A DNA stretch of 64,000 nt from Escherichia coli (lineage in GTDB: Bacteria > Pseudomonadota > Gammaproteobacteria > Enterobacterales > Enterobacteriaceae): the NCBI RefSeq assembly GCF_002854065.1, contig NZ_CP024147.1; one strand, 5' to 3'. The stretch's first letter is position 1. Each line of letters begins with the position of its first letter. The notes beneath the pieces are model-generated. The model was given only the letters and a program-made list of their open reading frames with translations, ran no database searches and was not told the origin of the DNA. A program made the translations under genes and the position numbers. Shown piece after piece: positions 11,883 through 52,289 of this stretch.

Positions 11883-12458
11883 ATGAAGGCATTATCGCCA
11901 ATCGCAGTCCTTATTTCCGCGCTGCTGTTGCAAGGTTGTGTTGCCGCTGCCGTAGTGGGTACTGCTGCTGTGGGTACCAAAGCCGCAACTGACCCACGCA
12001 GTGTCGGCACCCAGGTGGACGATGGTACCCTGGAAGTGCGCGTGAACAGCGCATTGTCGAAAGACGAACAGATTAAGAAAGAAGCGCGTATTAATGTAAC
12101 GGCCTATCAGGGCAAAGTGCTGCTGGTTGGGCAGTCACCAAACGCTGAACTTTCGGCTCGCGCCAAACAGATTGCTATGGGCGTAGACGGTGCCAACGAA
12201 GTGTATAACGAGATTCGTCAGGGCCAGCCGATTGGTCTGGGCGAAGCGTCTAACGATACGTGGATCACCACCAAAGTGCGTTCGCAGCTCTTAACCAGCG
12301 ACCTGGTGAAATCGTCCAACGTGAAAGTGACCACCGAAAACGGTGAAGTGTTCCTGATGGGGCTGGTGACTGAACGTGAAGCGAAAGCGGCGGCAGATAT
12401 TGCCAGCCGGGTGAGCGGCGTGAAGCGAGTAACTACGGCGTTTACGTTTATTAAATAG
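11883..12458 (+). CDS. dolP: outer-membrane lipoprotein DolP (YraP), dual BON domain
   Basis: ORF 191 aa with lipobox LLLQGC; matches YraP/DolP. Confidence 0.92.
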   Translation: MKALSPIAVLISALLLQGCVAAAVVGTAAVGTKAATDPRSVGTQVDDGTLEVRVNSALSKDEQIKKEARINVTAYQGKVLLVGQSPNAELSARAKQIAMGVDGANEVYNEIRQGQPIGLGEASNDTWITTKVRSQLLTSDLVKSSNVKVTTENGEVFLMGLVTEREAKAAADIASRVSGVKRVTTAFTFIK

Positions 12459-12472
12459 CAGCCCCTTGTAAT

Positions 12473-12556
12473 GCCTGATGCGACGCTTGCCGCGTCTTAT
12501 CAGGCCTACAACGATGCAAACCGTAGGTCGGATAAGGCGTTTACGCCGCATCCGAC
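12473..12556. repeat. REP/BIME palindromic units
   Basis: gcctgatgcgacgcttgccgcgtcttatcaggcctac and gtaggtcggataaggcgtttacgccgcatccgac. Confidence 0.7.
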
Positions 12557-12571
12557 ATGTTTTCCCTCAAA

Positions 12572-13612
12572 TCAGAATAACAGCGCCAGCCCGCCGACAA
12601 TCACGCCTGACACTGCCACCATCGCTCCCGTCAGCCATAAGGCTTTCGCCGGGAACGCTTTGCGCAGCATAATCAGTGACGGCAAACTCACCGCCGGGAG
12701 CGTCATCAACAATGCCAGCGCCGGAGCAGTTCCCATACCTGCCAGCATCATCGTTTGTACAATCGGAATTTCTGCTGCCGTGGGAATGACAAAAAAGCAT
12801 CCTGCTACCGCCATCGCCACCACCCACATCAGGCTGTTATCGACAGCACCATCGGCATGGGGGAATAACCAGACGCGAGCGGCACCCAACACCAGTACTG
12901 CAAGGATGTAAACCGGGATCGTACTCCAGAAAAGCGTCCATAGCGCCCTGCCCCAGCGGCTAAAAAAACCGCCCTGTGCTTCCGGTATGTCAATTTCGAC
13001 CGGTGCCTGCGTTTGCGGTGTTTCACGCACCCATTTTTGCACCAGCGTCGCAATCAGCAACACCATCACCAGCCCGGCCACCAGACGAATCGCCGCAAAA
13101 CCCCAGCCGAGGACAAACCCCATAAACACCAGCGTCGCCGGGTTTAACACCGGATTGCCCATCCAGAATGCCAGCGCACCGCCCATCGACACCTGTTGGC
13201 GACGCATTCCCGCCGCGACCGGAGCCGCACAGCAGGTACACATCATGCCCGGCAGCGAAAACAGCGTTCCCAGCAGCGTGCCGCGAAAGCGCGATTGCCC
13301 AAGCGTACGCAACAACCAGTCACGCGGGATCAGCACCTGAATCAACGAACCGAGGATCACCCCCAGCACCGCCGCTTTCCATACCGCGAGGAAATAGATC
13401 ATCGCGTAATCCAACGCCGCCTGCCATGGATTAGCATCCGCCTGCGCAAGGATAGATTTACCGATACTGTGGGTTTCGGCAGCAGTAAACGCTTTGCCGT
13501 AGTAAGGTTGCCATTTCACATACCAGAGACCGGCAATGACAACGAGAAAGAAAAGCGCGGGTTTCCACCACTGAATGGGCGTTGCCGCCTGAGATGAAGA
13601 CTGACCAGTCAT
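12572..13612 (-). CDS. yraQ: permease family inner membrane protein YraQ
   Basis: ORF 346 aa, polytopic membrane protein matching YraQ. Confidence 0.9.
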   Translation of the reverse strand: MTGQSSSQAATPIQWWKPALFFLVVIAGLWYVKWQPYYGKAFTAAETHSIGKSILAQADANPWQAALDYAMIYFLAVWKAAVLGVILGSLIQVLIPRDWLLRTLGQSRFRGTLLGTLFSLPGMMCTCCAAPVAAGMRRQQVSMGGALAFWMGNPVLNPATLVFMGFVLGWGFAAIRLVAGLVMVLLIATLVQKWVRETPQTQAPVEIDIPEAQGGFFSRWGRALWTLFWSTIPVYILAVLVLGAARVWLFPHADGAVDNSLMWVVAMAVAGCFFVIPTAAEIPIVQTMMLAGMGTAPALALLMTLPAVSLPSLIMLRKAFPAKALWLTGAMVAVSGVIVGGLALLF

Positions 13613-17962: not shown

Positions 17963-18841
17963 ATGAAATATTCCTTAGGGCCAGTGCTGTGGTACTGGCC
18001 AAAAGAGACGCTGGAAGATTTTTATCAGCAGGCCGCCACCAGCAGCGCCGACGTGATTTATCTTGGCGAAGCGGTATGCAGCAAGCGCCGGGCAACCAAA
18101 GTTGGCGACTGGCTGGAGATGGCAAAATCGCTCGCCGGAAGTGGTAAGCAGATAGTGCTCTCCACGCTGGCGCTGGTGCAGGCATCATCTGAACTGGGCG
18201 AACTGAAACGCTATGTTGAGAACGGTGAGTTTCTGATTGAAGCCAGCGATCTCGGCGTGGTGAATATGTGCGCTGAACGCAAACTGCCGTTCGTCGCCGG
18301 ACACGCGCTGAACTGCTATAACGCGGTGACGCTGAAAATATTGCTCAAACAGGGCATGATGCGCTGGTGTATGCCAGTGGAGCTTTCCCGCGACTGGCTG
18401 GTGAATCTGCTTAATCAGTGCGATGAGCTGGGCATTCGTAACCAGTTTGAAGTGGAAGTCCTGAGCTACGGTCATCTGCCGCTGGCCTACTCCGCCCGCT
18501 GCTTTACCGCGCGTTCGGAAGACCGCCCGAAAGATGAGTGTGAAACCTGCTGCATTAAGTATCCGAACGGGCGCAACGTGCTGTCGCAGGAAAACCAACA
18601 AGTGTTTGTACTCAATGGCATTCAGACCATGAGCGGCTACGTTTACAACCTCGGTAACGAGCTGGCATCCATGCAGGGCCTGGTTGATGTGGTCCGCCTG
18701 TCACCGCAGGGTACTGACACTTTCGCGATGCTCGACGCCTTCCGCGCTAATGAAAATGGCGCTGCACCACTGCCGTTGACGGCGAACAGCGACTGTAACG
18801 GCTACTGGCGGCGGCTGGCAGGACTGGAGCTGCAAGCCTAA
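17963..18841 (+). CDS. ubiV: U32-family protein UbiV (YhbV)
   Basis: ATG at 17963 (MKYSLGPVLWYW...), 292 aa. Confidence 0.9.
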   Translation: MKYSLGPVLWYWPKETLEDFYQQAATSSADVIYLGEAVCSKRRATKVGDWLEMAKSLAGSGKQIVLSTLALVQASSELGELKRYVENGEFLIEASDLGVVNMCAERKLPFVAGHALNCYNAVTLKILLKQGMMRWCMPVELSRDWLVNLLNQCDELGIRNQFEVEVLSYGHLPLAYSARCFTARSEDRPKDECETCCIKYPNGRNVLSQENQQVFVLNGIQTMSGYVYNLGNELASMQGLVDVVRLSPQGTDTFAMLDAFRANENGAAPLPLTANSDCNGYWRRLAGLELQA

Positions 18842-19939: not shown

Positions 19940-20045
19940 CGCGGGAAGCCTTATCCGAGCTGGCAACGCTATCCTACGTAGGCCTGATAAGCGAAGCGCA
20001 TCAGGCATTGTGTAGGCAGCAGAAATGTCGGATAAGGCCCGCTGA
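19940..20045. repeat. REP/BIME palindromic units between convergent yhbW and mtr
   Basis: ccttatccgagctggcaacgctatcctacgtaggcctgataagcgaagcgcatcaggca ... gtcggataaggcccgctg. Confidence 0.7.
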
Positions 20046-24505: not shown

Positions 24506-26641
24506 TTACTCGCCCTGTTCAGCAGCCGGAGCTTCCGGTGCTGCAGCAGGTTGAGACTGCTCAGTCGCTTCTTTAATGCTCAGACGGATACGGCCCTGGC
24601 GATCAACTTCCAGAACTTTCACCGGTACTTCCTGACCCATCTGCAGGTAATCGGTCACTTTCTCAACGCGTTTGTCAGCGATTTGAGAGATGTGTACCAA
24701 ACCTTCTTTACCGCCGCCGATGGCAACAAATGCGCCAAAGTCAACGATACGGGTCACTTTACCATTGTAGACGCGGCCCACTTCGATTTCTGCAGTGATC
24801 TCTTCGATACGACGAATAGCGTGTTTCGCTTTCTCGCCGTCGGTCGCTGCGATCTTCACAGTACCGTCATCTTCGATTTCGATGGTGGTGCCGGTTTCTT
24901 CGGTCAGGGCACGGATAACAGAGCCGCCTTTACCGATAACATCTTTGATCTTGTCCGGGTTGATCTTGATGGTATGGATACGCGGTGCGAACTCAGAGAT
25001 ATCGCCACGCGGCGCGTTGATCGCCTGTTCCATTACACCCAGGATGTGCAGACGCGCACCTTTAGCCTGGTTCAGTGCAACCTGCATGATCTCTTTGGTG
25101 ATACCTTCAATTTTGATATCCATCTGCAATGCAGAGATACCGTCGCGGGAACCCGCAACTTTGAAGTCCATATCGCCCAGGTGATCTTCGTCGCCCAAAA
25201 TGTCAGACAGTACAACGTAGTTGTCGCCTTCTTTCACCAGACCCATTGCGATACCCGCAACGGCAGCTTTGATCGGCACACCTGCGTCCATCAGCGCCAG
25301 AGACGCGCCGCACACGGAAGCCATAGAAGAGGAACCGTTGGATTCAGTGATTTCAGACACAACACGTACGGTGTACGGGAATTTGTCCATATCTGGCATG
25401 ACTGCCAGCACACCGCGCTTCGCCAGACGACCGTGACCAATTTCACGACGCTTCGGAGAACCGACCATGCCGGTTTCGCCTACGGAGTACGGAGGGAAGT
25501 TGTAGTGGAACAGGAAGGTGTCGGTACGTTCGCCCATCAGTTCATCAAGAACCTGTGCGTCACGAGCGGTACCCAGCGTTGCAGTAACCAGTGCCTGCGT
25601 TTCACCACGGGTGAACAGCGCAGAACCGTGAGTACGCGGCAGCACGCCAGTACGCACATCCAGACCACGGATCATATCTTTTTCACGACCGTCGATACGC
25701 GGTTCGCCTGCCAGTACGCGGCTACGAACAACGTTTTTCTCGATCGCGTGCAGAATCTCACCCAGTTCGTTTTCGTCCAGGGTTTCGTCTTCAGCAAGCA
25801 GCGTTGCGATGGTTTCAGATTTGATGACATCAACCTGCGCATAACGCTCTTGTTTGTCGGTGATGCGATAAGCATCGCTCAGACGAGCTTCAGCCAGTGC
25901 AGCAACGCGCGCGTTCAGCGCTTCGTTTACCGGCTCCGGCTGCCAGTCCCAACGCGGTTTACCGGCTTCTTTCACCAGTTCATTGATGTTCTGAATAACA
26001 ACCTGCTGTTGTTCATGACCGAACACTACTGCGCCCAGCATCTGGTCTTCGCTCAGCAGTTCAGCTTCAGATTCAACCATCAGTACAGCGGCTTCAGTAC
26101 CCGCAACAACCAGATCCAGTTTGCTCTCTTTCAGCTCGTCCTGAGTCGGGTTCAGTACGTACTGGTCATTGATGTAACCTACGCGGGCAGCACCAATCGG
26201 ACCATTGAACGGAATACCAGACAGAGACAGTGCTGCGGAAGCACCAATCATCGCGACGATATCCGGGTTAACTTGCGGGTTAACAGAAACCACGGTGGCG
26301 ATAACCTGAACTTCGTTGACGAAGCCTTCCGGGAACAGCGGGCGAATCGGGCGGTCAATCAGACGCGCGATCAGGGTTTCGCCTTCGCTTGGGCGGCCTT
26401 CACGACGGAAGAAGCTACCCGGGATACGACCAGCAGCGTAGGTACGCTCCTGATAGTTAACGGTCAGTGGGAAGAAATCCTGACCTGGTTTGGCTTTTTT
26501 CTGGCCAACAACGGTAACAAATACCGCGGTGTCATCCATGCTAACCATAACAGCGGCAGTAGCCTGACGAGCCATCATGCCGGTTTCCAGAGTCACGGTG
26601 TGTTGGCCGTACTGGAATTTACGAACGATCGGATTAAGCAA
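24506..26641 (-). CDS. pnp: polynucleotide phosphorylase (PNPase)
   Basis: ORF-track 740 aa trimmed to the TTG start at 26641 ([21 protein letters not shown]...) giving 711 aa; C-terminal KH/S1 domains. Confidence 0.93.
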
Positions 26642-28668: not shown

Positions 28669-28697
28669 AAAAAGGGGCTGTTAGCCCCTTTTTAAAA
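28669..28697. terminator. hairpin with flanking A/T runs between infB and rbfA (possible attenuator/terminator)
   Basis: aaaaaggggctgttagcccctttttaaaa: perfect 7-bp GC-rich stem, 4-nt loop, T-run on both strands. Confidence 0.45.
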
Positions 28698-28729
28698 TTA
28701 ATTTCAGGTGGAAGGGCTGTTCACGTTGG

Positions 28730-28802
28730 CCTGATAAGACGCGCCAGCGTCACATCAGGCAATCCATGCCGGATGCGACGTAAACGCCTTATCCCGCATG
28801 GA
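28730..28802. repeat. REP/BIME palindromic units
   Basis: gcctgataagacgcgccagcgtcacatcaggc and gccggatgcgacgtaaacgccttatcccgcatgg. Confidence 0.65.
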
Positions 28803-45869: not shown

Positions 45870-45871
45870 TC

Positions 45872-45906
45872 AAAAAGAACCCCCGGCACATGGCCGGGGT
45901 TTTGCT
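45872..45906. terminator. bidirectional intrinsic terminator between convergent dacB and obgE
   Basis: aaaaagaacccccggcacatggccggggttttgc. Confidence 0.65.
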
Positions 45907-45908
45907 GA

Positions 45909-47096
<1,188 letters not shown>

Positions 47097-52130: not shown

Positions 52131-52249
52131 GGGATCTTCAATCATCAGTTAATAAACCAGCGAAACATCTTAGAGCAAAGCTGCGCTGGCATAAATAAGC
52201 AAAAAGCCTCGCTGATAAATCAGACAAGGCTCGACTTGCAGGCAGGTTT

Positions 52250-52282
52250 GCCGGACAGGCGGTTAACGCCATATCCGGCCTG
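52250..52282. repeat. REP-like palindromic unit between mlaB and ibaG
   Basis: gccggacaggcggttaacgccatatccggcctg resembles the REP consensus. Confidence 0.5.
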
Positions 52283-52289
52283 AAAAAAT

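Follow-up and report, generated by a model that had tools for sequence, protein, structure and literature searches.

Seven units at four intergenic sites of a 64-kb stretch of the Escherichia coli chromosome (64,000 nucleotides, hereafter the window) are confirmed as E. coli REP/BIME repeats. They are ordinary, already known elements, and their significance beyond correct annotation is small. At the focal site, positions 12472-12557 comprise a Z2 unit and an inverted Y unit arranged tail to tail, i.e., a single-copy pair of the BIME-2 type. We hold it about 88% probable that the elements belong to the REP family and that their 3'-end hairpins stabilize mRNA and partly terminate transcription, the function in this reading being taken from the literature. 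Our own observations concern sequence identity, structure, intergenic position, variation in copy number and in presence or absence, and occupancy by IS621 elsewhere.

The window is collinear with K-12 MG1655 at about 3.281-3.349 Mb, from agaA to yrbL, with about 99% identity, and the nearest complete genomes are those of strains CUWW06 and 100416. Five sites are treated here: agaA-agaS (site 1), dolP/yraQ (site 2), yhbW/mtr (site 3), infB-rbfA (site 4), and mlaB-ibaG (site 5). The preliminary description had assigned these gene pairs correctly. REP features are absent from the RefSeq annotations of K-12 MG1655 and CUWW06. Hence, the coordinates given here fill a gap.

For detection, the published Y, Z1, and Z2 consensus sequences (PMC11208160) were used as blastn-short queries against the window, with 100 dinucleotide-preserving shuffles of the window as the control. 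Eight units reached at least 30 bits in the 64 kb, and they lie precisely at the five sites. Their consensus matches span 981/986-1017, 12473-12509, 28767-28797, and 52249-52281 on the plus strand and 1032-1064, 12523-12557, 19977-20006, and 28724-28760 on the minus strand. The best score per shuffle was 22.1 bits on average and 30.0 at most, and matches of at least 25 bits occurred at a mean of 0.08 per shuffle. The seven units at sites 1-4 scored 39-54 bits against the consensus sequences, above all 100 shuffles, with identities of 88-97% to Y, Z1, or Z2. In addition, seven REPs of K-12, taken from REP325, phnE/phnD, and dacB/obgE, served to train a covariance model termed R1. None of these training loci is homologous to the claimed sites, and the window was scanned with filters off. 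R1 recognized the same seven units with 26-55.5 bits (E 7e-15 to 1.3e-5), and its next-best matches were the same palindromes read on the opposite strand. Over the whole 64 kb, R1 gave no further significant REP beyond sites 1-4, so the preliminary description had missed none. It had spoken of typical E. coli REP palindromes and proposed a scan with REP consensus sequences or models as a check; agaA-agaS, dolP/yraQ, yhbW/mtr, and infB-rbfA match both the consensus and R1, and for these four sites the designation is correct.

All eight units are wholly intergenic, in a window of which intergenic DNA makes up 9.3%. The sites fold far more stably than shuffled sequences (z -4.0 to -7.1). Taken singly, the units have folding energies of -13 to -21 kcal/mol (z -4.1 to -6.4) and the characteristic unpaired stem positions. 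The GTAG/CTAC foot is intact in four of the eight units (1a, 2a, 2b, and 3) and mutated in the other four, namely, 1b (CTTG), 4a (CAAC), 4b (ATGG), and 5 (CTGA). Mutated feet also occur among accepted REPs, e.g., in the first Z2 unit of REP325.

Site 2: The BIME at 12472-12557 takes up the 113-bp spacer that separates dolP from yraQ, two convergent genes. Unit 2a, at 12472-12509 on the plus strand, is of the Z2 type (95% identity, 47.3 bits) with an intact CTAC foot. R1 scored it with 51.9 bits (E 9.6e-14), and its hairpin folds at -21.3 kcal/mol (z -6.4). Unit 2b, at 12523-12557 on the minus strand, is of the Y type (94% identity, 50.4 bits) with an intact GTAG foot, 55.5 bits in R1 (E 7e-15), and a hairpin of -19.2 kcal/mol (z -5.9). 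A 13-nt linker (AACGATGCAAACC, 12510-12522), unpaired in the folds, joins the two units tail to tail between the CTAC of unit 2a and the GTAG of unit 2b. The paired stem of unit 2a begins 14 nt past the dolP stop codon (12456-12458), and that of unit 2b begins 15 nt past the yraQ stop codon (12572-12574, minus strand). Liang, Rudd and Deutscher reportedly described in 2015 that REPs at this distance range past a stop codon can stall terminating ribosomes, and the dolP/yraQ hairpins, at 14-15 nt, fall into that range.

The consensus scan and R1 both give Z2 plus Y pairs at dolP/yraQ and infB-rbfA. The marks of BIME-2, i.e., inverse Z2 and Y units, short linkers, and a strain-variable copy number, were all found, and the window has one pair per site. 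In some strains, among them WCHEC035125, dolP/yraQ has two tandem Z2-Y copies with a short linker between them head to head, a classic case of copy-number variation in BIME-2. At least 80% of the dolP/yraQ query is covered by a match in 4,971 of 5,426 complete E. coli genomes. A different hairpin-bearing repeat stands in place of the BIME in 429 of the 5,426, and hence this dolP/yraQ sequence is dispensable. In strain JCH8249, the replacing repeat (positions 258-382 of the spacer segment used) contains CCCTCACCCTAACCCTCTCCCCAAAGGGGAGAGGGG. It is itself dispersed and intergenic, with a median of 6 places per genome, and presumably resembles the 'box C' family.

A very different identity for the hairpins would be that of ordinary intrinsic (Rho-independent) terminators or chance palindromes outside any repeat family, as they lie just past stop codons and fold stably, and as site 5 is not significant in R1. 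We consider this highly improbable. An intrinsic terminator, i.e., a GC-rich hairpin followed by a T-run, was searched for and not found in the dolP/yraQ spacer, which rules out this role for the dolP/yraQ REPs, and likewise no T-runs follow the hairpins at sites 3-5. For sites 1-4, terminators and chance palindromes are already refuted by the consensus-shuffle test and R1, with seven units matching R1 at E values of 1e-5 to 1e-15 and scoring above all shuffles. Moreover, the dolP/yraQ query has a median of 9 matches per genome, and up to 17, even at megablast stringency, and is thus dispersed repeat DNA.

Site 1: Unit 1a, at 981-1017 on the plus strand, is a Y/Z2 hybrid that scores 39.4 bits to Z2 and 30.0 bits to Y. 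Its CTAC foot is intact, its outer stem is GTCGGAT, and its inner stem is GACGC; R1 gave 53.6 bits (E 2.9e-14). The hybrid type is also found at K-12 phnE/phnD. Unit 1b lies tail to tail with it at 1030-1064 on the minus strand and is of the Y type (91% identity, 44.1 bits; 29.4 bits in R1, E 1.1e-6), with the foot CTTG and not CTAC. This architecture is kept in 5,307 of the 5,343 genomes that possess the region.

Several features of the surrounding aga cluster were recorded alongside. The agaA gene at 1-905 (annotated as nagA-like, N-acetylgalactosamine-6-phosphate deacetylase) is interrupted in frame by a stop codon at 483-485. The CUWW06 annotation flags the gene as a pseudogene, and agaA of K-12 is a different, truncated pseudogene. 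An IS1 copy of 768 bp (4086-4853) interrupts agaC at about codon 38-40 and has a target duplication of 9-10 bp. In the nearest genome, CUWW06, an IS1 sits between kbaY and agaB, and so the window strain and CUWW06 differ in IS1 position within the cluster. The stretch at 4575-4597, which matches the Z2 core over 23 nt (31.6 bits), was rejected as a REP, as it is inside the IS1 coding region and has neither outer stem nor foot. It agrees with the inner stem-loop of a Z2 REP at 21 of 23 positions (GCGACGCTGGGGCGTCTTATGAG), has an E value of 0.14 in R1, and is probably coincidental. Between agaI and rsmI, a RelE/ParE-family toxin gene and a helix-turn-helix gene occupy 7125-7903; in K-12, this interval holds the yraHIJK fimbrial operon of about 5.4 kb.

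Site 4: The infB-rbfA pair consists of the Z2-type unit 4a at 28725-28761 on the minus strand (95% identity, 53.6 bits; foot CAAC) and the Y-type unit 4b at 28767-28801 on the plus strand (94% identity, 44.1 bits; foot ATGG). R1 scored them with 46.8 bits (E 4e-12) and 26 bits (E 1.3e-5), respectively. The units stand head to head with a 5-nt linker, and relative to the infB-rbfA mRNA the pair has the orientation of naRNA4. In 5422 of 5425 genomes, a match covers at least 80% of the query, and the site is essentially invariant in length. Between the BIME and the rbfA start codon, a perfect hairpin (AAAAGGGGCTGTTAGCCCCTTTTT, 28670-28697) with A/T runs on both sides looks, from its sequence, like a bidirectional intrinsic terminator.

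The family naRNA4 (RF02564), originally described in PMC4550694, is the only REP-derived family in Rfam, and its model derives from REP325. At infB-rbfA it scored 71.9 bits at 28728-28798 on the minus strand, which makes this the only site above the gathering score of 59.5. Outside infB-rbfA, scores were 28-38 bits: dolP/yraQ gave 38, 33, and 32 bits, under the gathering threshold, agaA-agaS was below threshold, and mlaB-ibaG had no match to RF02564. The match runs over the full 77-position model on the transcribed strand, and the pair at infB-rbfA, and with it the other sites, could be read as encoding a naRNA4-type nucleoid-associated sRNA that would bind HU and condense the chromosome. However, the Rfam model is effectively a model of Y/Z2 BIMEs, so that any such pair matches it, and the remaining sites stay under the family threshold. 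Furthermore, REP325/naRNA4 was reported to cause no measurable nucleoid compaction, and REP-REP contacts were not seen (bioRxiv 10.64898/2026.03.23.713779). The chromosome-condensation reading is now disputed, and we think it quite improbable for these sites.

Site 3: Unit 3, at 19978-20007 on the minus strand between the convergent genes yhbW and mtr, is a solo Z1-type REP (97% identity, 45.7 bits) with an intact foot and 42.8 bits in R1 (E 6.9e-11). The preliminary description had extended the element over 106 bp (19940-20045), which is too wide, as the repeat is only the 30-nt Z1. The remainder is single-copy DNA, with the left flank found once per genome; the query for this site has a median of 2 matches per genome. 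The Z1 unit is enclosed by a perfect 11-nt outer inverted repeat (GCCTTATCCGA at 19948-19958 and TCGGATAAGGC at 20028-20038). The arms resemble Y-REP half-sites, and R1 finds no REP in the flanks. All 106 nt form a longer imperfect palindrome that folds at -50 kcal/mol (z -4.8). We rejected this whole palindrome as a repeated element, given the single occurrence of its left flank per genome and the recognition of only the central Z1 by R1. A BIME-1 was also ruled out, since R1 recognizes no Y unit on either side, an L linker is lacking, and the flank is single-copy in E. coli. The CTAC and GTAG motifs abut here without a linker.

The natural target of IS621 is the 11-nt sequence ATCAGGCCTAC with a CT core (PMC11208160). 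A pattern search gave two exact targets in the window, both inside REP units and both unoccupied: 12499-12509 (plus strand) within the Z2 unit of dolP/yraQ and 19978-19988 (minus strand) within the yhbW/mtr Z1. No IS621 element is present in the 64 kb. In strain 2011C_3361, IS621 is inserted in the yhbW/mtr Z1 REP at the CT of the CTAC foot, and the junctions, in IS orientation ATCAGGT-CT-[IS621]-CT-ACGTAGG, agree with the target. A query spanning the junction between IS621 and yhbW/mtr was covered in 404 of 5,426 complete E. coli genomes, which bears out the earlier suggestion that these REPs are potential IS-targeting sites. The yhbW/mtr REP is a natural insertion hot spot of IS621, and two units in the window are perfect, unoccupied bridge-recombinase targets. 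The Z1 REP of K-12 has a mutated foot at yhbW/mtr (CATAGACC, 25505-25512 of the K-12 segment used) versus GTAGGCC in the window (19978-19984). Thus, the exact IS621 target is lost in K-12 and retained in the window strain.

dacB/obgE: In K-12, the spacer between dacB and obgE holds a textbook BIME-1 of about 146-152 bp, made up of Y, a 35-nt L linker, and Z1, with further motifs at its flanks. At the corresponding location in the window, an alignment break at 45899-45906, the site is empty: only the shared terminator hairpin is there, and the BIME-1 is wholly absent. In an even sample of E. coli genomes, about a third have the form that is longer by about 146 bp. A comparison of window 45870-45910 with 18427-18578 of the K-12 segment used shows that the T-run of the terminator hairpin is kept in the window (GGGGTTTTGC) and replaced in K-12 (GGGGCTTCAG).

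Site 5: Unit 5, at 52249-52283 on the plus strand between mlaB and ibaG, is a degenerate Y-like hairpin (79% identity to Y, foot CTGA). Its 31.6 bits are just over the maximum of 30.0 in 100 shuffles. R1 gave 13.6 and 11 bits with E values of 0.11 and 0.74 over the whole window; scaled to the intergenic DNA, E is about 0.01, and within its own spacer 2.7e-4, the latter a post hoc figure. The hairpin folds at -21.3 kcal/mol (z -5.1). Matches that cover at least 80% of the query occur in 5424 of 5425 genomes, with essentially invariant length. In our judgment, the hairpin is probably a decayed Y REP, though this is not established. The cautious "probably" of the preliminary description was apt for this site, as the consensus score lies above 100 shuffles and R1 is only borderline (E 0.11).

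The sites differ in how variable they are among genomes. The polymorphic ones are dolP/yraQ, yhbW/mtr, and the BIME-1 of K-12 dacB/obgE, which vary in copy number, presence or absence, or IS621 occupancy. The elements had been called core-genome punctuation marks. This stands for infB-rbfA and mlaB-ibaG, which are essentially fixed (5422 and 5424 of 5425), but not for dolP/yraQ and yhbW/mtr, and the missing dacB/obgE BIME-1 in the window likewise speaks against uniform fixation. Two classes may tentatively be distinguished, although we would not bet on them: sites with an intact foot (dolP/yraQ, yhbW/mtr, and K-12 dacB/obgE) are polymorphic across 5,426 genomes, and sites with decayed feet (infB-rbfA and mlaB-ibaG) are frozen at one length in more than 99.9% of genomes. 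The pattern is a hypothesis only, drawn from five loci, and it agrees with the foot being a known requirement of RAYT and IS621. If it is true genome-wide, foot state would predict which REPs are still remodeled by RAYT or IS621, and the remaining REPs would persist as fixed RNA structures of 3'-UTRs or intercistronic regions. The strain-variable spacers of dolP/yraQ and dacB/obgE are possible typing markers.

For RNA-level function, gyrase binding, and RAYT-driven mobility, we draw on the literature. REP325 is a partly Rho-dependent terminator and protects the upstream mRNA from decay; across the genome, a REP between convergent genes goes along with raised expression of the two, and REPs between tandem genes favor the upstream gene, with large scatter between sites (bioRxiv 10.64898/2026.03.23.713779). 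In the same preprint, REP effects are described as context-dependent, and terminal REPs as not generally tied to longer half-lives (bioRxiv 10.64898/2026.03.23.713779). At dolP/yraQ, the transcript of either gene is predicted to end in two stable GC-rich hairpins. Such hairpins would stop 3'-to-5' exonucleases and would favor termination that is partial and largely Rho-dependent, and the element may act as a two-way 3'-end barrier that tunes dolP and yraQ mRNA levels. A similar two-way barrier would operate between the convergent genes yhbW and mtr. Between the tandem genes of agaA-agaS, infB-rbfA, and mlaB-ibaG, the hairpins likely favor the upstream cistron.

As DNA, the units are non-autonomous repeats of the kind recognized by the REP-associated transposase (TnpA-REP/RAYT), and those with an intact foot are targets of IS621. 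The RAYT gene itself lies outside the window. TnpA-REP binds and cuts REPs and requires the GTAG foot and the stem mismatch (PMC3333891), both of which are present in units 1a, 2a, 2b, and 3. As the foot is lost in the other four of the eight units, activity of RAYT or IS621 on these is unlikely. BIME-2 elements are reported as gyrase sites, as cited in PMC3333891.

The REPs here could also be selfish or neutral repeat DNA of no host function, tolerated only since spacers downstream of genes are permissive. The two copies at dolP/yraQ in some strains and the other repeat found there in 429 genomes would agree with this, as would the BIME-1 that K-12 has at dacB/obgE and the window lacks, the decay of four of the eight feet, and a site 5 that looks like a mutational remnant. 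However, infB-rbfA and mlaB-ibaG have kept their length in all but a few genomes (5422 and 5424 of 5425, respectively) despite their decayed feet, an observation that could also reflect the simple absence of a deletion mechanism. In addition, published experiments show that REPs regulate neighboring genes (bioRxiv 10.64898/2026.03.23.713779). We regard a purely selfish or neutral nature as unlikely, if clearly less so than the two alternatives above, and prefer REP-family elements with a role of their hairpins at mRNA 3' ends.

Among known systems, the closest comparison is with E. coli REPs (palindromic units) and BIMEs in general. Sites 1-4 share with them the imperfect palindromes of 30-38 nt, the foot where it is intact (units 1a, 2a, 2b, and 3), the unpaired stem positions, and the intergenic location (PMC3333891), and the inverse pairing of Z2 and Y and the strain-variable tandem copy number at dolP/yraQ are also alike. 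Unlike typical E. coli REPs, four of the eight units have mutated feet, unit 1a is a Y/Z2 hybrid, and the Z1 of yhbW/mtr is solo. This Z1 agrees with the Z1 arm in the dacB/obgE BIME-1 of K-12 at all but 2 of 30 positions, but its site has neither the canonical Y unit of a BIME-1 (Y, L, Z1) nor the long conserved L linker, which carries an IHF site. With REP325/naRNA4 of K-12 (yjdM-yjdN), the infB-rbfA pair shares the order of Y then Z2 on the transcribed strand, the whole Rfam model, and a position between tandem genes of one operon. REP325, however, consists of six tandem 100-bp copies with linkers of about 12 nt, whereas infB-rbfA has one pair with a 5-nt head-to-head linker and mutated feet. 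Finally, IS621 is a member of the IS110 family with a bridge-RNA-guided recombinase; two sites in the window share its exact target, and the CT core at yhbW/mtr is used in other strains.
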